DNA of 64,000 nucleotides from a virus. The stretch is taken from the IMG/VR virus record IMGVR_UViG_3300012920_000023, positions 49,464-113,463 of that record, one strand, 5' to 3'. Below the pieces are notes generated by a model, which saw only the letters and a program-made list of their open reading frames with translations, had not been told where the DNA came from and did no database searches. Position 1 is the stretch's first letter. Each line of letters starts with the position of its first letter. This document shows positions 1 through 56,475 of this stretch, piece by piece. A program made the translations under genes and the position numbers.

Positions 1-3000
1 CATACCACCCGTAGTGATCTTTGCGGTTGTAGTGCCGGCACTCGTTGTGTCTCCGATAGTAAGAGCATTTCCACTTACTCCGGCTTTACCTTGAATGTGC
101 AGACTACCCTGTGGATTGAGGTTAAACTCGCCGGGATCTTCATCCCATGAAATGATCGCATTTGTGTCTGTACCACGCTCCACAGTTAGCAGAGTTGCGT
201 CGGCATTATCACCGGCGTTCGTATCATTTGAGTTGAACACGATACCGCCACAAGTATCATCTAGGTTAAGAGTGTCGCCTAAAGTTGTAACGCCGGTTAC
301 GGCAAGTGTGCTCGTGACTGCGAGAGTACCTGCGATGGCAGTGTTGCCACTTGAAGCGGTGACATTGAACTTGTTCGCTCCAACAATAAAGTTTCCGGTA
401 GACTTAAGTGCATTAGACAACGCCCAATGGCCATTAGTCTCGTCCCACTTGATGCTTGCGTTAGTCTCATCGCCACGCTCTACCTCAATGATTGCGTCTC
501 GCTCTTGGCTTGTGCCTACATCACTGTTGAGCACAAGCATTGCACTCTGAGAGGCATTACTTAAGTCGCTCGCTTGAATGTTAAGACGGCCTGCCTGCGT
601 AGTCGCACCTGTGGAAGAAACGACAGTGTACTTAGTTGATCCAACAGCACCTACAGTGAGATTCCCGGTTGAGTTAAGTGCATGACTGAAATCAAACACA
701 CCGGGATTAGTGTCCCACTTAATGGTTTTATAAGCCGGGCCTGCACCGCCGTCATTGACACGGATAAGTGTTGCGTCTCCGGCACTTCCATTTGAAGCGA
801 TATCAGAACGGAAGGTGATACCGTCGGATATGCCGTCCTTGATGTTCAACGCATCTGCAAACGTTGTTGCTCCTGCAATCGAGACAACGCCTGCTGTGCT
901 GACGGTAAACTTGTCGGTGTTGACAGCAAATGTGCCGTTAGTTGCGATGTTACCGCTAGTGTGTGCGACTGTGAAAGCACCACTGCTCACATTGATTCCA
1001 CCGTTAGGACTGAGTAGTCCGGAGAAAGACCCGACTCCAAAACTGCTTGTGGATGTAGATGATGCTGTGAAACCGCCCGATGAACCTGTGCAGGTCATAG
1101 AGTCGGCCTTTAACTCATTCCCTCCGAAACTCGTCTCACCACTTGCCGAGGTAATCTGTCCGCTTGCGAATGTTAGGTTGGCGATCTTTGACGATGCCGG
1201 TAATTCGGTAATCTCATGGAACTGAATCTTGTGTGCACTCGTCGTTGTCACAAAAGTGGCGAACCCGTCGGTGTCTGCGGAGGTTCCAATCGTTAAGGCA
1301 GAGGGCTTGTTGGCATCTAGGAGAATGTTGAGGTTTGACCCATCATCACTCTTCAAAATGTCTGCGGAGAGTGAGCCTACATTAACAATGTTGAAATCAC
1401 CAACGTCTAGGTTTGCTCCGAGGGTAGTAACTCCCGTTACTGCTAGTGTACCGGCGATGGCCGTATTACCACTCGCCTGTGCGACTGTAAACTTATTCGT
1501 ACCGACTGCTGTACCGACTGAGAAGTCTGTGTTTGAGTGAAGTTTCCCACCGTTTACTGCAAACGTGCTATTGACATCATCCCAAAAAATATAGCCCTCA
1601 TCGGCATTGCCCGATCCGGCTTCTACAGTGATCAATTTCACATCGAAGTCAGAACTTTTATTTTGTGCACCACGATCTGAGTTAAAGACGATTCCGAAAT
1701 CATCGTCCGGTTGGCTTTGAATGAACAGGGTGTCTTTTACGGTCAACTCTGCGTTTACAAACCCGTTCCTTGTGATGATCAAGTCTTGGCCTACAGTTAC
1801 ATCGGTTGAAACTGAGAGGTTGTGGCTAAACGCCCAAGTTGTCTCATCATGTTGCCAAGTAATCGTTGAATAAGTATCGCCCATGTCAACGGCAATCACT
1901 GCGTTCTGACCCTGCCCTGTGCCTGTATCGGCATTAAGGATGATCAACTTATCGGATTCAGTAGACTTCTTATTTATACTTAGTGTGGAGTCTGCTCCAA
2001 GCGTAGCACCGCCCGTTAGAGTTGACAGTCCGGCTACTGAGAGAGTACCGGTTCCTGTCGCACTAATGTTGCCGGAGGTGGTAAGGTTCTCGCTTCCAAA
2101 ACTAATTTGAGCACCACCGCAGACAATACTTCCATCTGAGATTGTGATGTCGCCAATGCTTGATCCGGACTTAAAACTAGATACGTCGTTTGTAGCGGTA
2201 ATCCCACCGTCTGTGTTTACCACGAAGTCATCATTTACGTTGATTCCCCCGTCTAGTGAAGCCAAGCCCGTTACGTTGACTTCTCCGGATGCGGTCAAAT
2301 CTTTAAGAGACAGGTCTGCGTCCGTTGTGTTACCGGTGGTGAAGTCGGATGCTGTGTGTGCTTCTGTGGTTAGCCCGAATCTAAATGCACTTGCGGAGTC
2401 GTCAAAGTACAAGATAGCGTCGTTCCCACTGTTACCACGCTCCATCAGAATACCGATATCGTTTGAGTTAGCACCTCCTGCCACCGAGTGGTTCAAGCGA
2501 ATAACCGGATCTTTAACCTCTAGGGTTGTTGTGTTAACCGTTGTGGCAGTTCCGCTAATCAACAGGTCGCCGGTTATTACAACCTTACTGCCTGTACCAC
2601 CAAGAGTAATGGTGTGTGGGTTATTGCTTCCGTCTTTAGTAACGGTCGCTCCGATAGAGACATTTCCGTTAGTGAAGTCTAAGCCTGTAAGCCCGGTAAA
2701 TGCAGTTTCTGTGGCTCCGAGGGCTACAGAAGTCGCCCCGATAGTCACTGTACTGTTAGTCAGTTTGGCATTTGAGATTGCACTATTATTAATAATGTCG
2801 ATTTTAGCCGATGTGATAGCACCGCTTTGAAGCGTCGCCACACCCTCGTTATTGATGTTTAAGTCGCCGGAGATGGGCTTATTTCTAAACTGATTTGCCC
2901 CGGTACTCCCGTCGGAGTCAGTATTAAAGATAAGAAAATCTGCGTCTGAGAGTGCGTCCTCAGTGCCACCGTCTACTCCTAGGGTGACGTTTGACAGTGA

Positions 3001-3327
3001 GCCGATCTCAATCGATGAAGCACCACCGGAGTCAACGTATCCTTTAGTCGCCACGTCGGAGGATTCGGCAGGTTCTTCAACACCTCTTAGCCTAACGGTC
3101 GCATTACCTGCACTATCTAGGAACGAAACAACTTGACCTGCGGAAAGGACGTTAGAACCGAGGTTGTCCAAGTCGGCTCTGAGTGTCTCACGGCCACCGT
3201 TGGTTGTGCCGTCATGGACACGGATAGAACTGTTCGTAGTGTCTACCGTGATTTCACCGATAGCCCCTGCAAAGGCATCATTTTGCGTGTGTGTACCACG
3301 CCTTAGTTTTACTCGTCTTACTGACAT
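1..3327 (-). CDS. Large tail fibre / receptor-binding protein with Mtd_N-like N-terminus (3' end outside window)
   Basis: Not in ORF track. AGGAG RBS then ATG at 3327: MSVRRVKLRRGTHTQNDAFAGAIGEITVDTTNSSIRVHDGTTNGG, the typical Mtd_N-type motif. Same frame open at window start; Gly/Thr/Ser/Asn rich with internal repeats. Confidence 0.8.
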   Translation of the reverse strand, partial: MSVRRVKLRRGTHTQNDAFAGAIGEITVDTTNSSIRVHDGTTNGGRETLRADLDNLGSNVLSAGQVVSFLDSAGNATVRLRGVEEPAESSDVATKGYVDSGGASSIEIGSLSNVTLGVDGGTEDALSDADFLIFNTDSDGSTGANQFRNKPISGDLNINNEGVATLQSGAITSAKIDIINNSAISNAKLTNSTVTIGATSVALGATETAFTGLTGLDFTNGNVSIGATVTKDGSNNPHTITLGGTGSKVVITGDLLISGTATTVNTTTLEVKDPVIRLNHSVAGGANSNDIGILMERGNSGNDAILYFDDSASAFRFGLTTEAHTASDFTTGNTTDADLSLKDLTASGEVNVTGLASLDGGINVNDDFVVNTDGGITATNDVSSFKSGSSIGDITISDGSIVCGGAQISFGSENLTTSGNISATGTGTLSVAGLSTLTGGATLGADSTLSINKKSTESDKLIILNADTGTGQGQNAVIAVDMGDTYSTITWQHDETTWAFSHNLSVSTDVTVGQDLIITRNGFVNAELTVKDTLFIQSQPDDDFGIVFNSDRGAQNKSSDFDVKLITVEAGSGNADEGYIFWDDVNSTFAVNGGKLHSNTDFSVGTAVGTNKFTVAQASGNTAIAGTLAVTGVTTLGANLDVGDFNIVNVGSLSADILKSDDGSNLNILLDANKPSALTIGTSADTDGFATFVTTTSAHKIQFHEITELPASSKIANLTFASGQITSASGETSFGGNELKADSMTCTGSSGGFTASSTSTSSFGVGSFSGLLSPNGGINVSSGAFTVAHTSGNIATNGTFAVNTDKFTVSTAGVVSIAGATTFADALNIKDGISDGITFRSDIASNGSAGDATLIRVNDGGAGPAYKTIKWDTNPGVFDFSHALNSTGNLTVGAVGSTKYTVVSSTGATTQAGRLNIQASDLSNASQSAMLVLNSDVGTSQERDAIIEVERGDETNASIKWDETNGHWALSNALKSTGNFIVGANKFNVTASSGNTAIAGTLAVTSTLAVTGVTTLGDTLNLDDTCGGIVFNSNDTNAGDNADATLLTVERGTDTNAIISWDEDPGEFNLNPQGSLHIQGKAGVSGNALTIGDTTSAGTTTAKITTGGM

Positions 3328-3354
3328 TTAAGTCTCCTTAAAATTAAATAGAAA

Positions 3355-7041: not shown

Positions 7042-7061
7042 GTGCACACGTGTGCACACGT
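7042..7061. repeat. Tandem GTGCACACGT x2 upstream of nrdJ
   Basis: Direct 10-bp repeat; related 12-15-mers dispersed across the window. Confidence 0.7.
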
Positions 7062-15872: not shown

Positions 15873-16247
15873 ATGGCAAACCGTGAGATAAGAGGAATCG
15901 GATTTCCGTTTGATAGAGGATCGACTTCGTTCCCCGACACAGCAAATGGAACCAATGCGATAATAGCAAGAGTTAAGTCTCTTCTTACAACCGGGCCGGG
16001 TGAAGTGCCCATGCAACCAAATCAAGGCTCCATTGTTCAAAAGTACGTCTTTGAAAATATGACACCTTTAATGCGTTCCTATCTCTCTGATGAGATTAGA
16101 AATCAGATCAACACATTCATACCTCAGATGAATGTAGTTAGTGTCGCCACTGAGGTGAAAGACAATATAGTAACAACCACGGTTGAGTACGTTCTTGAGG
16201 GTGTAGCCGGAAACTTAGAGGTCGAGTTCGGCCCCGACGGAGGTTGA
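15873..16247 (+). CDS. gp25/GpW baseplate wedge subunit
   Basis: GIGFPF and LLTTGPGEVPMQPNQGS...VFEN motif. Confidence 0.88.
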   Translation: MANREIRGIGFPFDRGSTSFPDTANGTNAIIARVKSLLTTGPGEVPMQPNQGSIVQKYVFENMTPLMRSYLSDEIRNQINTFIPQMNVVSVATEVKDNIVTTTVEYVLEGVAGNLEVEFGPDGG

Positions 16248-16544
16248 TTCGGGTAGGATAATGCTCTGCCTAAGTATCTTAGAGACACGGCTTAACGAGA
16301 ATGCTTCCAATGAGGAGGCGATTTCATCATTGCCCTCTTTCTTCATACGAATCATCTCGTCTTCAATCTTTATCCCTTTTCGGTAAAGTAGAGTGACAAT
16401 CTCTAGCATAAAGGCGTTCTCAATTCGTGCACTCGTGTGCGTTGAACAATCCCTAAGTAATTCTAGGGCAACTTTACGAGCAAGATACAACTCATTCAAC
16501 ATTACATGGAACTTATCTTGTTCCTTATCAACCGCTTCACTCAT
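16215..16544 (-). CDS. Hypothetical protein
   Basis: Last gene of tightly coupled minus-strand operon. Confidence 0.55.
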   Translation of the reverse strand: MSEAVDKEQDKFHVMLNELYLARKVALELLRDCSTHTSARIENAFMLEIVTLLYRKGIKIEDEMIRMKKEGNDEIASSLEAFSLSRVSKILRQSIILPESTSVGAELDL

Positions 16545-16984
16545 AATCTATCTGCTATATCCTTATCGTGGTTCAAGTCTCCCATGTCATGGAGATGCTT
16601 CATAATAAAAGCGTAAACTCTGCCCCATCCCCATTGCTGTGGAGATACCCCGGGACGGCGTCCGGCGGTTTTACTCGCCTTTACACCTCTAGCAAATATC
16701 TCTTCAAGGTCTTTTAAGGGAATGCCGGTGGCATCTGAAACCGATTTTAGTCCACCGTCCAAGTCTCCATAGGTTTTTTTGAATGCCTTGGTGTATTGAG
16801 ACGGTTTTGTCTTTGCGTCATCTCCGGGCAAGGGCAGGTCTAAAGTTGGCGAGTCCGGGTCTTTTAAGGCAATCTTTTTACGCCTAGAAATCTCTCGATC
16901 TCGCTTCTGTCGCAACTCTTTATCAAGGCCGGACAGGTATCTTGCAGGATTGTCATCCCCTTTAAACCGATATGCCCTCTTCAT
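16541..16984 (-). CDS. DUF5824-like viral protein
   Basis: KPSQYTKAF and TGIPLKDLEEIFARG...RRPGVSPQQWGWGRVYAF motifs. Confidence 0.6.
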   Translation of the reverse strand: MKRAYRFKGDDNPARYLSGLDKELRQKRDREISRRKKIALKDPDSPTLDLPLPGDDAKTKPSQYTKAFKKTYGDLDGGLKSVSDATGIPLKDLEEIFARGVKASKTAGRRPGVSPQQWGWGRVYAFIMKHLHDMGDLNHDKDIADRL

Positions 16985-16989
16985 AATGA

Positions 16990-17340
16990 CTATTCCACGT
17001 CTTCTGATTCGTCAGAGACATCAGACTCTTCGGAATCTTCGACTTCTTCGGAGTCTGCGGAATCTTCTTCAAACGAAATGTCGATGCCATCTTCCTCAGA
17101 TTCGGCTTGAAGTTCGTCCTCAGAGTTATCGCCGGAGCCTGTGATTCGTGCGTATTCGGCCTGTAGACCTTGAAGCGAAAGTGCACATGCTTGAATAATG
17201 ATCTGTCTCTCATAAGGGTTAAGCAGTACACGCTCTGCCACTGCGGTTACGACTTTTACTGCTTCAAAACGTGCTTCAACAATCTGTTCTTCGGTAGGTT
17301 GCTGTTGAGTGTTTGCTTCACTGCTCATAGTTCTCTCCAT
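16990..17340 (-). CDS. Hypothetical protein with acidic C-terminal tail
   Basis: ORF in operon; Glu/Asp/Ser-rich end. Confidence 0.6.
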   Translation of the reverse strand: MERTMSSEANTQQQPTEEQIVEARFEAVKVVTAVAERVLLNPYERQIIIQACALSLQGLQAEYARITGSGDNSEDELQAESEEDGIDISFEEDSADSEEVEDSEESDVSDESEDVE

Positions 17341-17650
17341 TAAGGCGTTTTCTTAGGTCTGAGTTTTCTCTTTCAAGAAACTCGAGTTTAACTTTCATTG
17401 CCGACAACTCGGCTGTGAGTTGGCCAATCTGCTGTAGCAGTGTGACTCTCTCGGAGTTTTGACTATCTATCATTGCCTCTAATTTTGCAACCCTTTCTCT
17501 TAGATCATCACGATATTGAACCAACTTGGTTTCGTCGTTTCTCTCACGCTCAAGTTTGAGTTCGGACTTCTTTTGAAGCCAATCCCAAAGTTTTGATCCT
17601 GCAAGAGCGGTCGCAATCGCTCCTATTAATGTGACATAATCAGATTTCAT
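17318..17650 (-). CDS. Membrane-anchored coiled-coil protein (possible lysis accessory)
   Basis: N-terminal hydrophobic helix followed by heptad repeats. Confidence 0.55.
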   Translation of the reverse strand: MKSDYVTLIGAIATALAGSKLWDWLQKKSELKLERERNDETKLVQYRDDLRERVAKLEAMIDSQNSERVTLLQQIGQLTAELSAMKVKLEFLERENSDLRKRLNGENYEQ

Positions 17651-17651
17651 A

Positions 17652-18044
17652 CTATTTCTCCCGATATATTTTCTCTCGATAGAGTCGCCATTTTAAGTAA
17701 AAAGGTGGCAGTAGAAGTGTTGCAACTAAATAACATATTCTGCCGGCAGGGGAGCCAAGATGTTCAGTTTGAGCATAAATATGACTCGCATAGTAAACCG
17801 CCATGAGACTAAACGCTCGGTGCCTGTGGTTCAGATCCCTAGTTATAGTGCTCGCTAGAGAGTAGAGAGCGATGATCATTCCCGAAGCGATCATAAGTAG
17901 CGGATAACCCCTAAAAGTTGCTCCATAAGTTGACTTTGCTAAAAGAGTCAAACCAAGGCACAGTTCAAGCAGGTGCGTATCACTCCACAGGAGTATATTC
18001 TTGAGCCGGTTAAAGGCTCCATCTTCTTTATTAGTGTAACTCAT
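17652..18044 (-). CDS. Small multi-pass membrane protein (holin candidate)
   Basis: 3-4 hydrophobic segments, basic C-terminus. Confidence 0.5.
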   Translation of the reverse strand: MSYTNKEDGAFNRLKNILLWSDTHLLELCLGLTLLAKSTYGATFRGYPLLMIASGMIIALYSLASTITRDLNHRHRAFSLMAVYYASHIYAQTEHLGSPAGRICYLVATLLLPPFYLKWRLYREKIYREK

Positions 18045-18158
18045 CTAAACTCTCTACTTTAAGGCTGTTCCAACTTAGGTTATTTTACAATGGTTCAACG
18101 GACTACACAATCATCGATTGTTCAAGTAGAATAATAACAGTATGAGTTAGGAGTGGAA

Positions 18159-20327
18159 ATGAGCACCGAATATTTAGAAGACAAACAACCGTTAAATCAA
18201 GTCCAATACTCGGCAAAAGATTACTCAAGTTATTTTGATTCTATACTCACTCGCCTGCGAGAAGAGTATGGGGAGGATTATAACGACTTTGCCTCGTCTA
18301 GTGTAGGAGTCATGTTTGTCAACCTTATGGCCTATGCTATGGGGCAGTTAAGTTGGTACTTAGACCGCCGGTCTAGCGAGTCATATTTAGCAACAGCAAG
18401 GACACTTGATTCGGTCACTAGATTGGCCTCTCAGATAGGATACAAGCCTAAACGTGCTAGTGCGTCAAGTGTGGATCTAACGATTACCTTTCCGGCCTTA
18501 ATCGCAGACACCGTCATGTCTAGCGGATTCAATTTCTCCGGGCCGGGCGGTACAAACTTCCAACTAATGAATGATGTGCTTTTATCGGTAGGACAGACGA
18601 CTGCCGTGATCACGGTGTCTGAGGGTGAGCAAAAGACACAGAGTTTCACTTCCGACGGAGAGCCGGCACAACAGTTTATCCTGCCGGGAGTGTTGGATGG
18701 GGAATACGTTGCCGATCAATCTGTCAGAGTTTTTGTCAACGGTTTAGAGTGGACTGAGAAAGACTTCTTAACATACGACAAGACAAACCACTTTAGTGTC
18801 TCTTATACTACAGATCCCCCGGTTGTTCTTTTTGGCGATGGGAGTGCCGGGAACATTCCCAATCGAGGGGCTGACATTAGAATAGATTATCGGATTATAC
18901 ACGCCGAAGAGGGGAATGTTAGATCAAACACAATAACCTCAACAAGTGACACTCTCGTTGTGGCAGGTGATGTGGTCGATCTTCTCACTATAACTAATCT
19001 TGAGCCTGCCTCCGGTGGGAGTGGCCCTCAAAGTATTACTGAAATCAAGCGTGTAGCACCTATGGCTTTTCAAGCCGGTGGGAGTGCAGTCACTCAACAG
19101 GACTATTATGCTTTGGTGAACTCGTTTTCAGATCCTCTTTATGGCTCTGTCGCTAAAGGTTTTGCCGGTGTAACTCGACAAACATCTGCCGATGAGTTTA
19201 CTCGATCTCGATTGCAGGCTATTTCTAATGCTTTTGTAAATATCTTTGATAGGTCAGTGCTCCTAAACACGGAGACAAGAGCACTTGTGGAAGATATCCG
19301 GAGTTTAAGCAGTAACTCTGCGACGATTGCAGTTGATACTATCCTCGCAGACAATCTTAACTCGATCATAAGTCCGGCACTCACCAATATCGAAAACCTG
19401 TCTGTGCAGGCTAGAAATGAGAGCATACAGGTTCAATCAAGGTCACAACGTATAGTCGAGTTAGGGAATGACATACAGAACCTTGAAATAGAGTTGATCG
19501 GGGTTGCTGATCTCAATCCCGGCCTCCCTTTACCGCCTAACTCTACGTTTAACAGTCTCCAAGAAATTGTGACTGCGATCTCTAACCTCCGCAACGAGAT
19601 TCAACTAATAAGCCAAAACATAGAGACCTCGGCTCAAACAATACAGCCCATAAACGGCAGTGAGATACCGACTCAAGTTAATGCAATCAAAGATAGCGTC
19701 TCAATAGTCGGAACATCACTGCTTTTAGTTAGGGATAATAGCACCGGGGTCGTTAATAACGTAAATGAGATACTGTTGGACTTGACTGAAAACGCCAACT
19801 TGGTGGTTGTTAACAAGGATACAGGAGACACTTCTTTAGTCGAATTGTCTAATCATCTTGATCAACTTTTCGATGATTCTTGTAAAGCGAATGTGGTCAC
19901 CGTACCGATACTCGTTGAGGGTCGAGAGGGCTTTTATCAAGCCCCAAGTCGAGGTCTGATAAGGGCATTGCAGACATATCTTGATGAGGTAAAAGAGGTA
20001 ACTCATCTAGTCCGGGTTGTGGACGGCTCAACGGCACTTGTTCCGGCCAATGTGAACTTAAAGGTAGAGTTTAACACATCTTTTGTTAAGTCTGAGGTTA
20101 GAGCCGAGATAGAGTCCGGCATAGATACTCTCTTAAGACGGAGGGACTTTTCGATTCCGCTTTACCTATCTGATCTCTATAATGTTGTCGAGTTGGTTGA
20201 TGGAGTAGATCATGTTAATATACTGATCGACAGCCCTATTGAACGTATCGATAACGACGGAAACCTTATTGTAGGCGAGTTAGAGGTCGTTACTAAGGGC
20301 ACAATAACTATAGAGGAGGTCGTATGA
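18159..20327 (+). CDS. Baseplate wedge protein (gp6/J-like)
   Basis: YNDFASSSVG, ESYLATAR, IGYKP, FGDG..GNIP, ASGG, AVTQQDY motifs. Confidence 0.88.
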   Translation: MSTEYLEDKQPLNQVQYSAKDYSSYFDSILTRLREEYGEDYNDFASSSVGVMFVNLMAYAMGQLSWYLDRRSSESYLATARTLDSVTRLASQIGYKPKRASASSVDLTITFPALIADTVMSSGFNFSGPGGTNFQLMNDVLLSVGQTTAVITVSEGEQKTQSFTSDGEPAQQFILPGVLDGEYVADQSVRVFVNGLEWTEKDFLTYDKTNHFSVSYTTDPPVVLFGDGSAGNIPNRGADIRIDYRIIHAEEGNVRSNTITSTSDTLVVAGDVVDLLTITNLEPASGGSGPQSITEIKRVAPMAFQAGGSAVTQQDYYALVNSFSDPLYGSVAKGFAGVTRQTSADEFTRSRLQAISNAFVNIFDRSVLLNTETRALVEDIRSLSSNSATIAVDTILADNLNSIISPALTNIENLSVQARNESIQVQSRSQRIVELGNDIQNLEIELIGVADLNPGLPLPPNSTFNSLQEIVTAISNLRNEIQLISQNIETSAQTIQPINGSEIPTQVNAIKDSVSIVGTSLLLVRDNSTGVVNNVNEILLDLTENANLVVVNKDTGDTSLVELSNHLDQLFDDSCKANVVTVPILVEGREGFYQAPSRGLIRALQTYLDEVKEVTHLVRVVDGSTALVPANVNLKVEFNTSFVKSEVRAEIESGIDTLLRRRDFSIPLYLSDLYNVVELVDGVDHVNILIDSPIERIDNDGNLIVGELEVVTKGTITIEEVV

Positions 20328-28030: not shown

Positions 28031-28040
28031 GAGATTGAAC

Positions 28041-28397
28041 ATGAAAGTATTTAACTCACTCTTAATCTTATTGTTTGTTCTGACATTCACCGGTTGCAAC
28101 CGTGTGATCATTAGAGATTCCAAGGCATATAAATTGGAGGCATTGTACTTCTCAAAGACAATTGCTGAGACCAACAAGATTGTTCTTCATCGCTTAAAGA
28201 CTCAATGTTGTGAGGGTGCTGTGTTTAATAGTGGCGACGAGTCATGCTCTAAAGATGGTGAGACGTTCGCAGTCACGCACGCACGTGCACAACATCATTA
28301 TGATCGCTTGATGTTTCTTGCAGGTTTCACTGAACAAGACCCGGGGAGTGCCCCCGATTTTGAGATTGACGATATCTTGGTGGGGGTGTGCAAATGA
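28041..28397 (+). CDS. Lipoprotein
   Basis: AGGAG RBS; MKVFNSLLILLFVLTFTG-C lipobox. Confidence 0.7.
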   Translation: MKVFNSLLILLFVLTFTGCNRVIIRDSKAYKLEALYFSKTIAETNKIVLHRLKTQCCEGAVFNSGDESCSKDGETFAVTHARAQHHYDRLMFLAGFTEQDPGSAPDFEIDDILVGVCK

Positions 28398-38222: not shown

Positions 38223-38583
38223 GTTCTTGATAATCGACTGTGTCGTATATCACGCCGTCTTTGATCGTGAACACATGCTCCGGCATGACTACTATCCACA
38301 CACCCTCTTGGAGTCTCCACGCTCTTCGCTTTAACCTCAAACGACGGCGAAAGTCTGCACGTTTTAGTTTATAACCGGGTACAGGCTGTCTGTTCCAACT
38401 TGCCCCATGAAGCCAAGCGAGATCAGTACCCTCGCCGGGTTTTCGACCCTGCCGGGCTAGAAACTCAAAGGCTTCCTCATACCCCATACCAAAGGCTATC
38501 TCGCACGCTCTAACACCGCAGTCGTTTTCATCCCGGGAGTGTGGGAGTTCAGAGTACCCTAAGTCTTTAAGAATTACTCTCAT
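38164..38583 (-). CDS. Putative papain-like (C39-related) phage protein
   Basis: NDCGVRA...H...DG.IYDT, a Cys/His/Asp pattern. Confidence 0.55.
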   Translation of the reverse strand: MRVILKDLGYSELPHSRDENDCGVRACEIAFGMGYEEAFEFLARQGRKPGEGTDLAWLHGASWNRQPVPGYKLKRADFRRRLRLKRRAWRLQEGVWIVVMPEHVFTIKDGVIYDTVDYQELMETLVSEAYQVTHVQSLD

Positions 38584-39328
38584 CTTCGTCCGGGAATAGG
38601 GTATCAAGTGTCTCACTGCCATATACAACTTCATTGCCGGTCATGTCAAAAGCGACAACTTTGAATCCAATAACCTGTTCAATGCGGTCAAGGTATTCAT
38701 TAAGTGTATTAAGCCCGGAGTTTTGGCTTAAGTATTCTGTGCAGATGAGGTCAAGGGCATGACCCTCTTTTTCTGTTCCTGCTAAAGTCATGGCTTTCGC
38801 CAACGCAGTTGAAACATTAGTCATCTGATCTTCAAACAGGGCAAAGTTCTTACGCTTAGGTTTCTCCAAAATTGATGGAGCGTCAGTTTCCATCGACTCC
38901 GACTTGGCTTCTTTTACGGCGGTGGTCAGTTCTCTTAGCGATGAACTTTCTGCCACATCTCGCCATTCCTCTGCATTGGACTCGTCAACGACTCCAACCA
39001 ATTCTCGGGCTTTAGTCCAACCCAACTCTTTAACCCATGCTTGAACACTTTCGCTCTGATCACCAAACCACCCGGCAATAGCGACGAGATATTGGGCTTT
39101 GCGTCGTTGCATTGAGAGTTCGTTATCAACATAGTCCGGGAATGAAGTGTAGCCCCAATCTTCATAAGCGTTTTCATTCCAAACATTAAACAGAGCGGTA
39201 GCAAGACGCCAATAGGCACCCTCTACATTATTCTTTGCTTCGATGACCTCAAGACGTAAGTCATCATGTACGCTCGGCGGTAAGACCTCAATGGTCGCCA
39301 AACTTGTTTCATTTGATCGCATTAGCAT
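38567..39328 (-). CDS. Putative DNA-binding protein (DUF3102-like)
   Basis: GYTSFPDYV..ELSMQRRKAQYL and LGWTKAREL motifs. Confidence 0.5.
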   Translation of the reverse strand: MLMRSNETSLATIEVLPPSVHDDLRLEVIEAKNNVEGAYWRLATALFNVWNENAYEDWGYTSFPDYVDNELSMQRRKAQYLVAIAGWFGDQSESVQAWVKELGWTKARELVGVVDESNAEEWRDVAESSSLRELTTAVKEAKSESMETDAPSILEKPKRKNFALFEDQMTNVSTALAKAMTLAGTEKEGHALDLICTEYLSQNSGLNTLNEYLDRIEQVIGFKVVAFDMTGNEVVYGSETLDTLFPDEDESNS

Positions 39329-39477
39329 CTCCGATATTCAACTTAAAATGTTCACTGTGAACATATAACGGATGATGATTGTCACACGCTAGGTTCAATG
39401 TCAAGTCGAAAAGATTGTGCACACGAGTGCATGATGTGGCCGGCAGATTATCTTCTCAGAAATACTTTCTTTTTTAC

Positions 39478-39506
39478 TTGACTATACAGGTGGGTGCTGA
39501 TATGTT
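39478..39506 (+). promoter_or_regulatory. Sigma70-type promoter (divergent region)
   Basis: TTGACT-17 nt-TATGTT; opposite-strand TTGACA at 39399-39404. Confidence 0.7.
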
Positions 39507-39544: not shown

Positions 39545-39937
39545 ATGAGCGATAGCACTTTTATTAAACTACTCAAGGCGATCAGAATGCCGACTATTGA
39601 TGGCAGTGATCTCTCAAACCAAAATCATGCGATACGTCATATCGCACAGGCGTTCCTAATACATCTCAAGAGTGAAGATGTGGAAGAGATGATCAAGGAC
39701 ATTAAAGAGGTTTATCCGGATATCGTTACTCATGTGACGGTCTATAATGCAGGGAGCACTCTTAGTAAACCGTTCATGACCGGCTCCGAGAGAGATTGGC
39801 TTGCCACGGCCATGACATGCATATTGAGTGGGTGGGAGGTTCCTACAGGGTGTAACAATAAAGATAAAGAAAATAATGTAGAAGAGGAAAGTGATGTTGA
39901 TGGCTTTATGGGCGATTCCCGTATAGGTCGGTGGTAA
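39545..39937 (+). CDS. Hypothetical protein
   Basis: AAGGAG RBS. Confidence 0.6.
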   Translation: MSDSTFIKLLKAIRMPTIDGSDLSNQNHAIRHIAQAFLIHLKSEDVEEMIKDIKEVYPDIVTHVTVYNAGSTLSKPFMTGSERDWLATAMTCILSGWEVPTGCNNKDKENNVEEESDVDGFMGDSRIGRW

Positions 39938-40520: not shown

Positions 40521-40877
40521 ATGAGAGAACATCTCTATCACTATAAAGCCCGGGTGGTTTCCGTTTATGATGGAGACACAGTCACGGTCTTGATTGACTT
40601 AGGTCTAAACATATTTGCTAAACGTAAGGTGCGACTCATCGGGATAAACACCCCGGAGATACGCACCCGGGATGCCGATGAAAAGAAGCGTGGCTTAGAA
40701 GCAAGAGACTATCTTAGGGAACGAGTTCTTGAGAAAGAAATCATCATACACACAGTGGGCAAGGGGAAGTATGGGAGATGGCTTGGAGAGATATGGACAC
40801 TTGACGATTATGGCGATACAATACTTGAAAGTGTAAACGACGAACTTATTCGCACCGGGCATGCTCAAAAGTATTAA
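40521..40877 (+). CDS. Thermonuclease (SNase family)
   Basis: VYDGDT, VRLIGINTPE, GKYGRWL. Confidence 0.92.
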   Translation: MREHLYHYKARVVSVYDGDTVTVLIDLGLNIFAKRKVRLIGINTPEIRTRDADEKKRGLEARDYLRERVLEKEIIIHTVGKGKYGRWLGEIWTLDDYGDTILESVNDELIRTGHAQKY

Positions 40878-41712: not shown

Positions 41713-42102
41713 ATGTTGTTACAAGAAGCGATTTTAATTGTGCAGAGTCTGAGTGAAGCACGTCGATTCAGAAAAGGCGATCCGATTAATAACGAACTAA
41801 AGGACGCCCTTAAGTCTCTGCGTAAGCACTCAGAGGTAATATATGACCTAAACCGGGCACGACAGAGTGGCCGTTTAGACAACTATAAACTCAGTGCCAA
41901 AGAGAAGTTAAGGCTAATGTCTATTGCGGATGCAGTTGAGACTATGGGTAAAAATGGTATTAGTTCCGCTAGAATGATAAGGTCTACTGCATTAAAGGGA
42001 ATGAAGAGTGGCAAGATCTCAAGTGCTTCCGTATTACTCATCTCTAATCTCTTGAACCGCCTAGATATGGGAGATTTCGGAGACGAGTTCTCTAGCCTAT
42101 AA
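41713..42102 (+). CDS. Hypothetical protein (possible internal virion protein)
   Basis: Begins MLLQEAI...LSEA; basic. Confidence 0.6.
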   Translation: MLLQEAILIVQSLSEARRFRKGDPINNELKDALKSLRKHSEVIYDLNRARQSGRLDNYKLSAKEKLRLMSIADAVETMGKNGISSARMIRSTALKGMKSGKISSASVLLISNLLNRLDMGDFGDEFSSL

Positions 42103-42116
42103 GCACTCGAGTGCAG

Positions 42117-43022
42117 TTAAGATTTCTTTGATCTCGACTTTCGTGGAAAGCAGTAGTCTCTAACTTTGCAATCTTTCGCCCGGTAGGATGACTTTTTAGG
42201 GCATGAGTCGATCCGGTCATAAAGAGGTACTTCTAAGCCGAGATCAGAAGCGGTGGCACAGTCCTTAAGCATACCTTGAATAAGTTTGATTTGAGCGTCA
42301 TCTCGCTCAACGATATGCTCACAGATCCCCTCCGGGAATAGCATATTCAAGTCTTTATTAATGTAAACAATCCGGGCTCTCTCTAGCCCGGTGAGCCACA
42401 TATAAGCCTGTACTTGAATGACATGCTCTCCTTTCGGTCTACCGCCGAGAGCAGGATCAACATTATCATACCCACGGCTTGAGATCGTTTTCAGTTCAAG
42501 GGCTTCAATGTCATCTTCACCCCATACTAGGACTCCGTCCATGTGGCCGGTGAGCCTATACTCTTGATTTACAAACTCTAACTCTTCATAGACCCAATCG
42601 TCGCCGTCCGGCTTAGGTATCCACTTATGGCTTAATGAATACTCACTCAGTTTAGATCCTTTAGCCAATGTCGAAGCCGAGTGTGATCTTGATGATGTTC
42701 CTCTCTTCCACCACCCTTGAAAAACATCGCCAAGTGTAGGCAGGTAATCCTCTTGAAATTGAGTGTGGATTGCAGTGCCCGACCCAAATATCCATCTAAG
42801 TTTTGAGTCAACTTCAATAGCGAGGTTAACATTATGTTCTTTTCCGAGTTGGAGGGATCTTGGGCATAGCCTATACAGACCGCTTGATCTAAACCACATA
42901 TTCTCATGGGGAGTTTGATCTCTTCTCACCTCCGGCATTGATTCCCAAAGAGCCTCTTGCAAACGCCGGCTTTGAGGTACTGCCTTGGGTTTCATTACAT
43001 CATTGAGGATACTGCCTAACAT
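42117..43022 (-). CDS. Cas4-like PD-(D/E)xK exonuclease
   Basis: CPR, GTAIH, GHMDG, ELKT, QVQAY and C-terminal Cys cluster. Confidence 0.8.
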   Translation of the reverse strand: MLGSILNDVMKPKAVPQSRRLQEALWESMPEVRRDQTPHENMWFRSSGLYRLCPRSLQLGKEHNVNLAIEVDSKLRWIFGSGTAIHTQFQEDYLPTLGDVFQGWWKRGTSSRSHSASTLAKGSKLSEYSLSHKWIPKPDGDDWVYEELEFVNQEYRLTGHMDGVLVWGEDDIEALELKTISSRGYDNVDPALGGRPKGEHVIQVQAYMWLTGLERARIVYINKDLNMLFPEGICEHIVERDDAQIKLIQGMLKDCATASDLGLEVPLYDRIDSCPKKSSYRAKDCKVRDYCFPRKSRSKKS

Positions 43023-46017: not shown

Positions 46018-46296
46018 CTATCTGTTGCGTTCAGTGATGTAATCCATCTCAACTTTGAGTCCCTCTCGACCACCGTGTGCTGTTAAGATACTTCTTATCG
46101 CAGAGACTACATGCCCACTCTTACCGATGACTTGACCCACATCCTTTTTGTCTGTGTGGAGTTCTACTATTAATCTGAACTGCGAGGGGACTATATTCAC
46201 CTCAACAGTCTCCGGACTATCGACTATCCCTTTTATGATAGTAGTGACTAGATTCTTAAGGTTGTCTATATGTTCTCGGGTAATTTGTTTGCTCAT
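46018..46296 (-). CDS. khpA: KhpA-like KH-domain RNA-binding protein
   Basis: IVDSPETVEV...DVGQVIGKSGHVVSAIRSIL (GxxG loop). Confidence 0.85.
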   Translation of the reverse strand: MSKQITREHIDNLKNLVTTIIKGIVDSPETVEVNIVPSQFRLIVELHTDKKDVGQVIGKSGHVVSAIRSILTAHGGREGLKVEMDYITERNR

Positions 46297-47123: not shown

Positions 47124-47435
47124 CTAATCCCAAGAGAGCCTTATTTGAGTAGGTACACGATTGACATCATTTGCGAGGATATTGAGTTCGATTAACATGA
47201 CTCTATCTGTGTAATCACGCAGGGTCTTGCCTCCCATCGTGTACCCGGGAGCGTTTTTCAAATGATGAATGAGCACGTCTGTGCCCTTTATAATGCTCGC
47301 TTCTTTTAAGGGTATCTTGTTTGAGGTAAGGCGTGTGTGAACATAGTTTGCACCGGTGGTGAAGACCTCTATGTACTGTATTCCTGTAGGTGTGCACACG
47401 AGTGCGTTCTTAATCATTTTATCTACATTTTTCAT
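47124..47435 (-). CDS. Hypothetical protein
   Basis: 103 aa ORF divergent from replication operon. Confidence 0.5.
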   Translation of the reverse strand: MKNVDKMIKNALVCTPTGIQYIEVFTTGANYVHTRLTSNKIPLKEASIIKGTDVLIHHLKNAPGYTMGGKTLRDYTDRVMLIELNILANDVNRVPTQIRLSWD

Positions 47436-47501: not shown

Positions 47502-48131
47502 ATGAGAGAGTTAAACAGTGCCGACCTTGAAGCAATGAGACTGCCTAGGCGGTTTTGGTCGGCTTTTTTTGATAAGATCAATGGCCCGAATGGAGATGGT
47601 TCTGAGGTAAGAACGATGATCGCCGGGTACGTTTCAAATATTCATGCTATGCGAAATGCAGGAGCAGGTCTACTAATTTGGGGGCCGAACGGAACAGGTA
47701 AAACCTCTATCGGTTCGGTAATCCTAAAGCACGCAAGAAGAATGGGCTTCACCTGTTTGTTTATTAATACGGCGAGCCTAAAAGATGTCATTGTGAGTCG
47801 TGAGGTCTATGACCAAGAGAGCGGTCTGACTCTTTGGAATAGAGCCAAGATTGTCGACTTTCTTTTGCTAGATGATCTTGGGAAAGGTTCTCAAGATTCT
47901 ACCGGGTTTGGTGAGCGAATGATCGATGAGTTAATCCGGGCAAGATATGCGGACAATAGATGTACTATAATCACGACTAATATCCCAAAATCGAACCTAA
48001 CAGACTTCATCAAACCGTCAACGCTTCATATCCTCAAGGGATCAAGTGCTCAAATCAAAGTTGATTTTTATGATTTCAGAGTTGAAGAGGGTAAGAGGAT
48101 AAGAGACTTGATAAATGGGGGTAAGCAATGA
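47502..48131 (+). CDS. DnaC/IstB-like AAA+ helicase loader
   Basis: GPNGTGKT, LLLDDLG, RARY..TIITTN; adjacent to DnaB. Confidence 0.88.
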   Translation: MRELNSADLEAMRLPRRFWSAFFDKINGPNGDGSEVRTMIAGYVSNIHAMRNAGAGLLIWGPNGTGKTSIGSVILKHARRMGFTCLFINTASLKDVIVSREVYDQESGLTLWNRAKIVDFLLLDDLGKGSQDSTGFGERMIDELIRARYADNRCTIITTNIPKSNLTDFIKPSTLHILKGSSAQIKVDFYDFRVEEGKRIRDLINGGKQ

Positions 48132-50568: not shown

Positions 50569-50577
50569 GAGGGCAAC

Positions 50578-52026: not shown

Positions 52027-53493
52027 ATGAAAGAGCATAAGTACATTGCAAGTGGATGGGTGTGGCTCCGTAAGTCTGATTATGCTCCGTCTTATCTCAA
52101 CCATATAAGGAGGGTGCTAACCTGTTACCCTAAGTCGACTTCTGAACACAGCAAAGCCGAGCCGGCTCCAATAAGATTATATGAGGATAGGCGTGAAGTT
52201 CTAGGCGTGCCTAGAGGTTGGTTTACCGATCAACTAGATTATTCAAGAGAAGCGGTAATAGAGCGAGTTTCAGACGGCTCTCCCATAGATACATCCGTTA
52301 AGTCCTTAATGCGGTTTAAAGGGCCATTTAAAGAGCAGGGAAACGCATTAGAGGTCATGCGTGATTACATGAACCTAAAAGGGTTTGGTGGCTTCTTGCT
52401 TCAAGCCGGTTGTGGTTTTGGTAAAACTAACACTGCACTTGAACTCGCTTATCGCAACGGGCGACGCACACTTATCCTTGTGCATAAGGAGTTCTTTCTC
52501 CGGCAGTGGAGAGAACGTATAGAGACATTCTTTACGGGGGCAAAGATTGGTTATATCCGGCAGGACTCGTGTGATTTTGAGGGCTGTGATTTTGTGATCG
52601 GTATGCTTCAATCGATAGCAAGAGATGATGGGGCAGGGAGTAAGTATAACCCGGCGATGTATGAAGCGTTTGGTATGGTGATCTCTGACGAATGCCATCG
52701 TATAGGTGCTCAAAGTTGGTCATCGATTGTGCCGAGGTTTACTGCACGTTGGCGTGTGGGGTTGACAGCCACTCCCCGGCGTAAAGACGACGCAGAGATG
52801 GTATTCTTCAAACACATTGGCCCGATTATATACCGAGCAAAGACATCTGCTCTAGTCCCGGAGGTGCGTGTCTTAGAGACACAGGCGACTCTTGATGGGA
52901 AGCGTGTCTATGGACGTTTCAAGCCGGCAGATTCACTAGGCCATACTGAGGTTCTGAGTCAGTTGGTTAAAGATGACAAGCGGAACCGCCTTATCGCCGA
53001 GGTCGTATCTCGTGCGGTGGCGAATGGTCGTAAAGTTATGATCATCAGTGAACGTTTGAAGCACCTAGATTCCATAAAAGAACAGTTTTTTGAAGAACTG
53101 CTCCGCTTGGATTATGAACTAGACCCGGACGTTCAAGTTGATTACATGGTAGGCTCTAGGAGTGAAAACGAACTCAAAGAAGCAGAGTCGGCAAACGTAA
53201 TCCTTGCAACAAAGCAGATGGTAGAAGAGGGGCTAGATGTACCGGCGATTGATGTGTTGGTATTGGCCACGCCCATGAGTGATGTGGAGCAGACTGTCGG
53301 ACGTGTTCGCCGACACTGCAAACCGTCAAAAGATAAATGCCCAAAAATGTGTCCTTGGAGAGCACACGAGTGCACCGGGAAACCCCACCCGATAGTGGTA
53401 GACGTTCACGACCCGGGCATACCTCAGTCGATGAGAAAAGTTAAACGTCGAAATGATTTCTATACAAAGATAAAAGGAGGCCATAATGGCTAG
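52027..53493 (+). CDS. Superfamily 2 helicase (UvsW/ResIII-like)
   Basis: GFGKT, DECH, GLTATP, EGLDVP, QTVGRVRR. Confidence 0.9.
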   Translation: MKEHKYIASGWVWLRKSDYAPSYLNHIRRVLTCYPKSTSEHSKAEPAPIRLYEDRREVLGVPRGWFTDQLDYSREAVIERVSDGSPIDTSVKSLMRFKGPFKEQGNALEVMRDYMNLKGFGGFLLQAGCGFGKTNTALELAYRNGRRTLILVHKEFFLRQWRERIETFFTGAKIGYIRQDSCDFEGCDFVIGMLQSIARDDGAGSKYNPAMYEAFGMVISDECHRIGAQSWSSIVPRFTARWRVGLTATPRRKDDAEMVFFKHIGPIIYRAKTSALVPEVRVLETQATLDGKRVYGRFKPADSLGHTEVLSQLVKDDKRNRLIAEVVSRAVANGRKVMIISERLKHLDSIKEQFFEELLRLDYELDPDVQVDYMVGSRSENELKEAESANVILATKQMVEEGLDVPAIDVLVLATPMSDVEQTVGRVRRHCKPSKDKCPKMCPWRAHECTGKPHPIVVDVHDPGIPQSMRKVKRRNDFYTKIKGGHNG

Positions 53494-53920
53494 TAAAAAA
53501 AGTGGGACTTACTTTACGGAGTGGTATGCTAAGAACCGAGAAACTTTTCTTGAGAAACGTCGAGCACGTTATCAAGATGATGAGAATTACCGGGAGAGAC
53601 AACAGCGTTACACTAAGGAATCTCGTCAGAGAAAGCGTGACGGTGAAGAGTTGGTTTACAAAAACACTCTTAAAGACCTCGCAGACTCAATGAGTGTTTG
53701 CACAGGGACTGTTCGATATTGGTTCAAGCAGGGTTACATGCCTGTTCCACCCAAAGGCCAATCCGGACGTTATGAGATCACCGATGAGAGTTTATCTATG
53801 ATTTCAAGTGCGTTTAAAGAGTTAGGAGGTCGTTTAAAGCCCTCTAATGTAAAAGAGTTTAAAGACATGACCGGTAAACTCATTGATAGCGGTTGGTGTT
53901 ATGAAGAGGTGGATGCATGA
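53486..53920 (+). CDS. MerR-like HTH DNA-binding protein
   Basis: LKDLADSMSVCTGTVRYWFKQGYMP...GRY. Confidence 0.7.
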   Translation: MASKKSGTYFTEWYAKNRETFLEKRRARYQDDENYRERQQRYTKESRQRKRDGEELVYKNTLKDLADSMSVCTGTVRYWFKQGYMPVPPKGQSGRYEITDESLSMISSAFKELGGRLKPSNVKEFKDMTGKLIDSGWCYEEVDA

Positions 53921-54099: not shown

Positions 54100-54163
54100 C
54101 TATCATGCAAGTCAAAGTTAAAACTTAATCACGGTTCAACATGGATAAAAAAAGGAGTTGAAA

Positions 54164-54718: not shown

Positions 54719-54728
54719 CGGAGTGAAC

Positions 54729-54983: not shown

Positions 54984-54994
54984 GGGCATTAATT

Positions 54995-56188
54995 TTGAGT
55001 AGGAGAGATAAGTTAAAGGCGTTTGCGTCTCAAGTAGAAAAGAAGTATGGAGAGCGTTCATTAGATATCGGTTTACGCACCATTGATATAAAGAGGTTGC
55101 CCACCGGCAGTCTTGGTTTAGACTTGGCTTTAGGTGGTGGAGTTCCTTATGGTCGTGTGACTATGATGTATGGTGCGAAATCTAGCGGAAAGACCACCAC
55201 GGCTTATAGGTTAGCAGGTCAATGTCAAGACTTGTGTGCTAACTGCCTGCGACCTGCACAGTTTGATGATCTTAGCGTAAGGTATGACGAGGATGGTGAA
55301 GTCATTGAACCTCAAGGCCACTGTGATTGCTACAACGAGGGTTTATTTACTCCGGTTCAATACCCGGATGAAAATAAACTCGATTTTAAAGCACGTTTAA
55401 AAGCGTATGAGCAGAACTCTTATGAGAGGTTTTGGATTGCGATCATAGACGTGGAAGCGTCTTACGATCACAAGTGGGCGACGAAAGTAGGCTTAAAGCC
55501 TTATGGAGTTGTCTTTAGCCGTCCGGGGTCAGCAGAAGAGGCAATCGATGTTATTGATCATCTCGTTAGAACCGGGAGCGTGGACATGGTTGTTCTAGAC
55601 AGTATCGCTTCTTTGACTCCCTCTAAGGAGATTGAAGAGAGCGTGGAAAAGTGGCAACAGGGCTTGCAGGCACGCCTAGTCAATAAGTTCTGTCGAAAGA
55701 TAAACTCTACCATAAATGATGTGGGCCGGGAGTATGGTCGTAAACCCACTATGGTGTTCATCAATCAGATACGAGAGAAGATCGGCGTTATGTTTGGCTC
55801 AAATGAAACCGTTCCCGGTGGTAGAGGGCAGGGATTCGTAACATCATGCGAGATCAAGATGTGGGCGAACGATTATCAAAAAGAAAAGATGCCGGGTCTT
55901 GATTTTGAAACGACCACAGGCGTGCGGATTAATTTTAAGGTTGAAAAAAACAAGACTGCTCCACCAAAGCGAACGGGTTCATACTTAATGTCTCTTGAAG
56001 ACGGGTCTGTCGATGACAGTAAACTAATTCTCGATTTCGCCGAGGGGTACGGTGTCTTTGGAAAGAACGGAAAAGTTTGGGAAGTTCTTGGAGTAGAGTT
56101 TAAGACTAAAAAGTCGGCGGTAGAGTTCATTATGAAGCCGGAGAATGTTCAGCACATCAAAGAGTTGATGTTAGAGGCTTATGTGTAA
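54995..56188 (+). CDS. recA: RecA recombinase with Cys-rich insertion
   Basis: TGSLGLDLALGGGVPYGR, SSGKTT, VLDSIA, FINQIREKIGVMFG, VEKNK. Confidence 0.93.
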   Translation: MSRRDKLKAFASQVEKKYGERSLDIGLRTIDIKRLPTGSLGLDLALGGGVPYGRVTMMYGAKSSGKTTTAYRLAGQCQDLCANCLRPAQFDDLSVRYDEDGEVIEPQGHCDCYNEGLFTPVQYPDENKLDFKARLKAYEQNSYERFWIAIIDVEASYDHKWATKVGLKPYGVVFSRPGSAEEAIDVIDHLVRTGSVDMVVLDSIASLTPSKEIEESVEKWQQGLQARLVNKFCRKINSTINDVGREYGRKPTMVFINQIREKIGVMFGSNETVPGGRGQGFVTSCEIKMWANDYQKEKMPGLDFETTTGVRINFKVEKNKTAPPKRTGSYLMSLEDGSVDDSKLILDFAEGYGVFGKNGKVWEVLGVEFKTKKSAVEFIMKPENVQHIKELMLEAYV

Positions 56189-56475
56189 TGCCGGAGTTAG
56201 TAGCGATGCTCCTGCTGTCCATTCTGTGCTTCCGGAGGCCATCAAAGGGTCAATCGTGTTCATGGCAGGTTGATGGTATAGGTATCGATGGGAGCGTCTT
56301 TGAGGTTTGTACTAAGTGCACACGAGTGCGTGTCTACCTCGTTGACCGAGATGGTGAGCCTTTAAGTATCTATGAGTTTGACAAGTTAGACTCGTCTGAG
56401 TCCACAGAAGACGCCGTATTAAGAGAGTATAAAAATAACGCAGGTTTGATAGAGATTGATAATGAAGACCTCTAA
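56188..56475 (+). CDS. Hypothetical protein
   Basis: Coupled to recA; CTKC. Confidence 0.5.
   Translation: MPELVAMLLLSILCFRRPSKGQSCSWQVDGIGIDGSVFEVCTKCTRVRVYLVDRDGEPLSIYEFDKLDSSESTEDAVLREYKNNAGLIEIDNEDL

Follow-up and report, generated by a model that had tools for sequence, protein, structure and literature searches.

The 64,000-nucleotide stretch analysed here (the window) comprises positions 49464-113463 of the 113,463-bp IMG/VR virus record IMGVR_UViG_3300012920_000023 (G000; CheckV completeness 63%), and its subject is a short DNA word, the exact 12-mer GCACACGAGTGC, which is scattered inside and between the genes and belongs to a wider family of inverted repeats. The Gp23-family major capsid protein of G000 and other genes of the window (a baseplate-J-like protein, NrdJ, a DnaB-like helicase, a primase, a UvsW-like helicase and a RecA/UvsX-like recombinase) indicate a T4-like myovirus, which is taken to be marine because one helicase 83% identical to its own stems from Tara Oceans data. 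Comparison of the window with a phage collection found no near relatives at either the DNA or the protein level, and relatives were gathered with a helicase profile, yielding 38 related IMG/VR loci.

The 12-mer occurs five times in the window and eight times in the record against an expectation of 0.01 copies, and none of 100 dinucleotide shuffles of the window reached five. It is the most frequent version of a GCAC-N4-GTGC family that has 16 members in the record and nine in the window (about 1.5 expected; 0-2 at every other spacing from N0 to N12). The layout in G000 is (GT)GCAC-N4-GTGC(AC), an inverted repeat of 12-16 bp whose centre is mostly ACGA (among the 16: ACGA 8; TCGA 2; GCAT 2; ACGT, ACAT, GCAC and GTCT 1 each). 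The members in the window, several of them inside open reading frames (ORFs), are:

7042..7057, no strand assigned: family member, perfect 16-bp palindrome GTGCACACGTGTGCAC, intergenic, directly upstream of nrdJ
16427..16442, minus strand: family member with exact core (12-mer at 16429-16440), within ORF 16215-16544 (minus)
28275..28290, no strand assigned: family member ACGCAC-GCAC-GTGCAC, within ORF 27993-28397
39417..39432, plus strand: family member with exact core (12-mer at 39419-39430), intergenic, between divergent promoter-like sites
42101..42116, no strand assigned: family member AAGCAC-TCGA-GTGCAG, filling the 14-bp gap between the convergent genes 41713-42102 (plus) and 42117-43022 (minus)
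47271..47286, no strand assigned: weak family member GAGCAC-GTCT-GTGCCC, matching in the 4-bp arms only, within ORF 47124-47435 (minus)
47392..47407, plus strand: family member with exact core (12-mer at 47394-47405), in the first 14 codons of ORF 47124-47435 (minus)
53360..53375, plus strand: family member with exact core (12-mer at 53362-53373), inside the UvsW-like helicase gene at its 3' end, coding there for AHEC
56316..56331, plus strand: family member with exact core (12-mer at 56318-56329), in the small ORF 56188-56475, downstream of the RecA/UvsX-like gene

The first-pass annotation of this DNA had reported five exact copies where about 0.01 would be expected; all five were located (its coordinates carry 0-2 flanking bases) and shuffles gave the same 0.01. 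The members at 28275, 42101 and 47271 were absent from its list, and of the two further relatives that it named, the one at 7042-7061, described as a double copy, is a family member before nrdJ but consists of a single perfect palindrome (7042-7057), whereas 1231-1242 is a half-site (centre plus one arm) and does not belong to the family. Its observation that four intragenic copies lie in unrelated ORFs and are unexplained by coding was borne out, since the copies fall in different frames of different ORFs; moreover, the codon-preserving shuffle that it proposed, in which synonymous codons were exchanged within ORFs, left 1.3 +/- 1.1 intragenic family sites against 11 observed, so that coding or codon usage does not account for the family. 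The copy said to lie between divergent -35 boxes is indeed so placed, with 39419 being 12 nt upstream of the leftward -35 and 46 nt from the rightward promoter. Site 47392-47407 precedes the replication module, which starts at 47502, by 97 nt. Outside the window, another exact 12-mer of the family, GCACGCATGTGC, is present in two copies of opposite orientation (record positions 4179 and 11445). At the palindrome 7042-7057, the longest nrdJ ORF begins at a GTG (7050) within the repeat, although the likelier start is a GGAGG with ATG that follows the palindrome at about 45 nt. A search of IMG/VR with the 14-mer GCACACGAGTGCAC gave single chance matches only, and none of the papers searched contained any of three of the palindrome words.

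Each clade of relatives carries an over-represented palindrome of its own, with the same layout and different arms, at 15-35 copies per genome. The words identified are:

G001: GTGCAG-ACGT-CTGCAC (GTGCAGACGTCTGCAC), 5 copies in 56 kb
G072 (complete, 134 kb): TGCAAT-N2-ATTGCA, 22 copies
G052: GCAA-N4-TTGC, 20 copies in 54 kb
G068 (complete, 157 kb): GCGAAC-TYRA-GTTCGC, 26-29 copies
G061 (169 kb): GCGAAC-CYRG-GTTCGC, 33 copies
G060: GCGAACACGTGTTCGC (pattern GCGMAC-ACGT-GTKCGC), 10-15 copies
G059: GCGAACACGTGTTCGC and GCGCACACGTGTGCGC (pattern GCGMAC-ACGT-GTKCGC), about 10 copies each

The pair of arm variants in G059 forms a bridge between the GCGAAC type and the GTGCAC type of G000. Because the arms of the relatives differ while the layout stays, the conserved feature is the inverted repeat; the '10-bp periodic' direct repeat of the first-pass annotation is therefore not retained, the apparent periodicity in G000 arising because GTGCAC is self-complementary. 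In G068 (TTGA), G061 (CCAG) and G000 (ACGA), a single change would turn the commonest 4-nt centre into a perfect palindrome, and perfectly symmetric centres (TTAA/TCGA, CCGG/CTAG and ACGT, respectively) are rare. Two distant phages that share only the helicase, G075 (210 kb) and G081 (174 kb), have no such palindrome. In the lineage member G064 (complete, 186 kb) the dense lattice is absent, and four copies of TGTACTSAGTACA were found together with a repeated promoter-like word, CTTGACAGACGC.

The intergenic share of the sites is 44% in G000, 45% in G052 and 59-80% in G072, G060, G061, G068 and G001, in genomes that are 81-95% coding (5-19% non-coding). Read on the sense strand, the asymmetric centres occur in both orientations at roughly 50/50 (TTGA 14 vs TCAA 9 in G068; CTGG 14 vs CCAG 12 in G061), and imperfect flank pairs show no wobble bias (G.U 29 vs A.C 31); the lack of both orientation and G.U preference speaks against any strand-specific signal and for double-stranded DNA sites that are symmetric and read by a dimer. 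A spacing and strand map, also suggested in the first-pass annotation, revealed gaps more even than chance, the sites following one another along the entire chromosome at roughly 5-7 kb (about 7 kb in G000). The coefficient of variation (CV) is 0.50 for G000 (P 0.002-0.003), 0.56 for both G072 (P about 0.001) and G061 (P below 0.0002), and 0.74 for G068 (P 0.006-0.05), and this significance holds under uniform and gene-start null models alike. Evenness was not significant in G052 and G060, which are fragments. Many copies in the relatives lie 2-8 nt before the Shine-Dalgarno ribosome-binding site, a closeness expected for anything in these gaps because they are only 40-60 nt long. A minority of sites (in G061, G068 and G000, there at 39419) are 5-12 nt upstream of a TTGACA (-35) box, and most have no promoter-like site nearby.

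Two genes of the window that the first-pass annotation had put forward as possible binders both encode lineage-wide helix-turn-helix (HTH) proteins, the one at 38567-39328 with a predicted ParB-type DNA-binding fold. They and the promoter-like sites on either side of 39417 are:

38567..39328, minus strand: best candidate reader, 253 aa; residues 13-148 predicted to fold like the ParB/Spo0J/Noc/KorB DNA-binding domain
39375..39404, minus strand: sigma-70-like promoter match TTGACA-18-AATCAT, for gene 38567-39328
39478..39506, plus strand: sigma-70-like promoter match TTGACT-17-TATGTT, for gene 39545-39937
53486..53920, plus strand: rival candidate reader, 144-aa MerR-type HTH protein, directly after the helicase gene throughout the lineage

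The AlphaFold2 model of the 253-aa protein (predicted local distance difference test, pLDDT, 71) is disordered over residues 1-17, after which the DNA-binding domain begins. In VIA-align comparisons it matched, over the full domain in each case, Spo0J-parS (4umk) with Z 10.6 and a root-mean-square deviation of 3.3 over 115 aligned residues, ParB-parS (6t1f) with Z 9.8, Noc-NBS (6y93) with Z 9.3 and the KorB-OB operator complex (1r71) with Z 7.7. The Foldseek top ten were mostly ParB chains (probability 0.96-0.99), with the Rubisco assembly factor Raf1 also present. DUF3102 appeared below cut-off in eight of 23 orthologues and no Pfam family exceeded it, a protein atlas gave low scores only (DUF3102, DUF1016/ParB HTH and a plasmid partition N-terminal domain), and no ParB_N (CTPase) domain was detected in the family. 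The family profile run against PDB sequences returned ferritin matches only, which were discarded as chance. The family is present in 25 of 33 relatives and missing from the most distant, palindrome-free ones; phyletic profiling against G075 and G081 is uninformative because hardly any of their genes are shared with the lineage. The 253-aa protein is the sole ParB-like protein of G072, a complete genome devoid of both ParB_N and HTH_ParB. The gene adjoins a ParB_N gene in six genomes and lies one to two genes upstream of TerL in G052, G072, G064 and G001, and far from TerL in G000, G061, G068 and G059.

The ParB_N-only protein of G000 (262 aa, record 16464-17252, phrog_26387; AlphaFold2 model with pLDDT 58) has no HTH_ParB match and heads the gene order ParB_N, 219-aa gene, TerL (phrog_2) and portal (record 16464-21517). 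As a reader of the sites in its own right it was weakened by its presence in only eight of 31 relatives and its absence from the complete G072. Canonical HTH_ParB is missing from G072, G061, G068, G059 and G060, and searches for ParA-type ATPases (PF13614, PF01656) found no match in G000 (63% complete), in the complete genomes G072 and G068, or in G061, while each of 14 control genomes matched. The 144-aa protein was assigned as a MerR-like winged HTH from Pfam MerR_1 (E 0.005) and phrog_19880 'transcriptional regulator' (E 2e-9), and shows the conserved pattern YTVG..A..L.RS..TINYW.R.G.LP.

Homologues of the 253-aa and ParB_N proteins co-occur in Vibrio, Stenotrophomonas, Rhizobium and Rhodobacter siphoviruses of 80-100 kb, and the lattice was examined in two of these cultured phages. 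Vibrio phage vB_VpS_PG28 has 21 copies of TGCA-N6-TGCA in 50 kb (CV 0.37, P below 5e-5), where other spacings occur 0-1 times, and Stenotrophomonas phage DLP_5 has 22 in 50 kb (CV 0.58, P 0.004), 14 of the 22 being TGCAAT-N2-ATTGCA; the words of G000, G001 and G072 share this TGCA-N6-TGCA core. The order ParB_N, small gene, TerL, portal is common to G000, DLP_5 and PG28. Although PG28 and DLP_5 are not fully independent of the lineage, because replication and terminase-proximal genes are shared, these data show that the lattice travels with the gene set across morphotypes.

The G001 16-mer GTGCAGACGTCTGCAC occurs in more than 120 IMG/VR stretches and in many Burkholderiales genomes, and also in proviruses of 30-45 kb. 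Genes with HTH_ParB were found on 30 of 50 contigs carrying the word as against one of 25 control contigs, and three proviruses contribute at least four carrier loci whose copy of the word falls within the parB gene itself, two of these genes being confirmed as ParB by Pfam. The G001 word data independently connect this type of palindrome with ParB-family proteins. The parB genes concerned are large (ParB_N plus HTH_ParB, 500-900 aa; IMG/VR proviruses L091:6713-6728, L116:3821-3836, L088 and L085), and the word there encodes GADVCT in a Cys-rich stretch, the DNA word being retained at 47% protein identity.

The interpretation to which we give moderate confidence is that palindromic sites of 12-16 bp in double-stranded DNA form a lattice throughout the lineage, with a dimeric phage HTH protein, most likely the 38567-39328 product, as the candidate reader. 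The first-pass annotation had suggested a genome-wide, parS-like protein-binding signal separate from promoter palindromes, and that much agrees with the directly observed enrichment (including that in intergenic gaps), the symmetry and lack of orientation of the sites, their even spacing, the changes of arms across the lineage and the presence of such lattices in cultured phages, together with the fold seen in the candidate's model; the system is, however, not ParABS. In the mechanism that we propose, a dimeric phage-encoded HTH protein would read the dyad sites; the binding, the identity of the binder and the effect are inferred. The reader would most likely be the 253-aa protein, with a predicted ParB/KorB/Noc-type DNA-binding domain and no CTPase domain, beside a separate ParB_N-only protein near the terminase genes, and GTGCACACGAGTGCAC is the DNA that it would bind. 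Sites are kept at roughly even intervals, preferably in short intergenic gaps and in coding sequence where needed, and because of this even spacing and preferred intergenic placement the reader would mark or organise the phage chromosome as a whole, much as KorB or Noc does. Its role could be long-range silencing, condensation or the marking of phage DNA for packaging, rather than the switching of individual promoters.

Several findings weigh against this interpretation. The position of site 53362 reads GCACATACCTGC in the 83%-identical Tara relative (a 4-kb contig), with AHTC instead of AHEC, and other close helicase homologues have AREC or AGEC there; the test of conservation at synonymous positions that the first-pass annotation had proposed thus failed at the one checkable site, and single sites turn over, so that, on this single check, it seems to be the array as a whole that is maintained. 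The fold match of the 253-aa protein lies in a helical domain, where a Z of about 10 is suggestive and not decisive, and neither sequence profiles nor Pfam connect the family to ParB. Its co-occurrence with the palindrome is confounded by shared ancestry, the 144-aa HTH protein has the same phyletic spread, being in every lineage genome tested, and in both proteins those residues that vary with arm class vary with clade as well. G064 has a weak, divergent homologue of the 253-aa protein yet only its four copies of a different palindrome, and sites are not significantly nearer the candidate gene 38567-39328 than chance (Fisher P 0.21).

Other readers of the same sites have to be considered. That the MerR-type 144-aa protein (53486-53920) binds the dyad as a dimer we regard as unlikely: its winged HTH and lineage-wide position directly after the helicase would suit it, a 'transcriptional regulator' or 'DNA-binding domain protein' is annotated at the corresponding position in DLP_5 and PG28, and site 53362 is only 113 nt upstream of its gene, but MerR-family proteins act inside promoter spacers, at one or few promoters, and most sites here have no promoter nearby. 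G052 and G072 have GCAAT arms in common but very different recognition helices in the 144-aa protein, which holds equally for the 253-aa protein. The MerR-type protein is ranked below the 253-aa protein because, on general grounds, a dispersed non-promoter pattern suits ParB/Noc/KorB readers better. It is less probable still that the sites are distributed packaging marks by which the ParB_N protein, the 219-aa protein and TerL, with or without the 253-aa protein, recognise or process concatemers. The ParB_N-TerL-portal order in G000, DLP_5 and PG28 and the nearness of the 253-aa gene to TerL in four genomes are consistent with such marks, as is the even spacing, which would place a site near any DNA end; against them, two genomes with full lattices, the complete G072 and G061, lack ParB_N, the 253-aa gene is distant from TerL in the four genomes named above, and headful packaging of the T4 type requires no sequence signal. 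We consider it very improbable that a host regulator such as a LexA-type repressor reads the sites. LexA boxes are CGAAC-N4-GTTCG in Gram-positive bacteria and TGCNC-N4-GTGCA in Fibrobacter, an unverified resemblance to the arms of two lineages on which a literature search found nothing, and the G001 16-mer is common in Burkholderiales genomes and their proviruses; however, in IMG/VR that word tracks phage ParB genes (in the contig counts given above), and a host regulator would fit poorly with 15-35 evenly spaced copies per genome, many of them intragenic and most far from promoters, with two arm variants within one genome (G059), and with the same TGCA-N6-TGCA core in Vibrio, Stenotrophomonas and marine T4-like phages. 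A type II topoisomerase site or a restriction-like site with a 4-nt stagger was also considered and set aside; a literature search on T4 topoisomerase sites found nothing.

Explanations in which the sites act as RNA, as single strands or as promoters have hardly any probability in our judgement. An RNA or single-stranded DNA hairpin with a 6-bp stem and a 4-nt loop (a 5' stabiliser, processing site, translational operator or terminator) would agree with the many copies just before Shine-Dalgarno sequences in the relatives, with the preservation of base pairing when arms change between lineages, and with the terminator-like score of 39418-39431 in a consensus scan. The proximity to ribosome-binding sites is, however, expected anyway in gaps of that size, both loop orientations relative to transcription occur (14 vs 9; 14 vs 12), G.U mismatches are not in excess over A.C, most copies lack a following T-run, and pairing in group A would leave a 2-nt loop. 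A promoter element for a phage-modified RNA polymerase, substituting for the T4 late promoter, is of equally slight probability. The T4 late-promoter word TATAAATA is indeed nearly missing from the lineage despite the Gp23-type capsid (0-4 per genome on both strands of the whole record, G001, G052, G060, G061, G068 and G072), and the copy number of 15-35 and the placement just upstream of genes resemble a promoter class; but the sites show symmetry and no orientation, between a third and a half of those in G000 and group A are intragenic, the ribosome-binding site begins 2-8 nt past the site and leaves no space for a normal start site, and the copy at 42103 lies between convergent genes.

Beyond the lattice itself, our data revealed further features of the lineage. 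The UvsW-like helicase (52027-53493) ends in a lineage-invariant four-Cys cluster, C..KC...CPWR...C (residues 431-449), probably a zinc finger, and site 53362 overlaps its final Cys codon. A Cas4/RecE-like PD-(D/E)XK exonuclease (42117-43022, minus strand) is conserved in the lineage, and the end of its gene borders the 14-bp gap with palindrome 42103; 40521-40877 encodes a staphylococcal-nuclease homologue. A 92-aa KhpA/KhpB-type KH-domain protein (46018-46296, minus strand; Pfam E 2.7e-15), of a class that binds RNA or single-stranded nucleic acid and here encoded by a T4-like phage, is kept in G072, G068 and G061. The TerL- and portal-like genes of G001 (L047; 7005-11351 and 11323-16983) are 2.7-2.8 times the G000 length and align in separate blocks, and among the helicase homologues P0048, P0051 and P0077 some bear Hint or LAGLIDADG domains; both are probably due to inteins.

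Extending the ParB-like interpretation to phages at large, we propose, tentatively and with considerable doubt, that many large lytic phages (marine T4-like myoviruses and the cultured Vibrio, Stenotrophomonas, Rhizobium and Rhodobacter siphoviruses) may carry an undescribed whole-chromosome marking: an even lattice of fast-evolving 14-16 bp palindromes with a ParB-type reader that lacks a CTPase domain and ParA, often beside ParB_N and terminase genes, which would organise or silence the DNA or tag it as 'self' when it is replicated or packaged. Should the lattice be real and its reader a ParB-like protein, DNA-binding hardware of the centromere/operator type would serve lytic phages for an undescribed genome-wide purpose. 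The fast arm change between lineages is a natural data set for the evolution of DNA-recognition specificity, and because vB_VpS_PG28 and DLP_5 carry the lattice and the same two genes, the question is open to bench work.

Among known systems, the PeSL cassettes of T4-type phages consist of a stem-loop at a fixed distance from an early promoter and head cassettes of small genes, unlike the present sites, of which a minority are near promoters and many lie inside large genes; the strand specificity and G.U tolerance of an RNA stem-loop are likewise not seen here. The centromere-like palindrome of about 16 bp that characterises ParABS is found (GTGCAC-N4-GTGCAC, 16 in the record), but no ParA was found in the four genomes searched, the CTPase (ParB_N, 262 aa) and the predicted ParB-type fold (253 aa) are on separate proteins, and G072 has neither Pfam domain. 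Chromosomal parS sites are clustered near the origin, and in comparison with chromosomal ParB-parS and Noc-NBS systems the present sites have a far higher density and even spacing. They share with ParB-parS and Noc-NBS (4umk, 6t1f, 6y93) the 14-16 bp palindromes, often intragenic and in near-identical copies. Cluster A stoperators are similarly many, short and dispersed inside and between genes, and are read by one phage protein; they are, however, asymmetric and oriented with transcription, in temperate phages with an immunity repressor (PMC4351075), whereas the sites here are symmetric and unoriented.

The Cluster O mycobacteriophages (Corndog and relatives) carry more than 30 17-bp dyad repeats, TGTTCGG-N3-CCGAACA, which resemble the present sites in their dozens of dispersed copies, invariant arms and asymmetric, unoriented centre in non-temperate phages (PMC4351075). 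Those repeats too are both inter- and intragenic (about one third intragenic), with many in short gaps and few near promoters, and an asymmetric centre is preferred (TTT/AAA). They differ in belonging to Mycobacterium siphoviruses, in having a 3-nt spacer (here 4 or 6) and in becoming denser toward one genome end, unlike the even lattice described here (PMC4351075). That study named no structural candidate for a reader, and it could not reveal arm changes between lineages because only five closely related genomes were compared (PMC4351075); if the ParB-like interpretation is true, it would answer the ten-year-old puzzle of these repeats.

The OB operators of KorB on the IncP plasmid RK2 are 16 bp long and are placed 4-10 bp upstream of a promoter or at a distance from it of 45 to over 1000 bp, which resembles the dispersed palindromes here, of which the promoter-near ones are 5-12 nt upstream of a -35 box and others distant (PMC11790492). 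The model of the candidate matches the KorB DNA-binding domain (1r71, Z 7.7), a resemblance not recovered with sequence profiles. KorB unites its DNA-binding domain with an N-terminal CTPase domain in one protein and is partnered with KorA and the ParA-like IncC, whereas the 253-aa protein has no detectable ParB_N, no ParA was found in the genomes searched, no equivalent of KorA is known, and the sites belong to a lytic phage, not a plasmid. Judged by analogy, the Cluster O repeats appear to be the closest published description of the lattice, and KorB with OB the closest mechanistic model for how it may be read.

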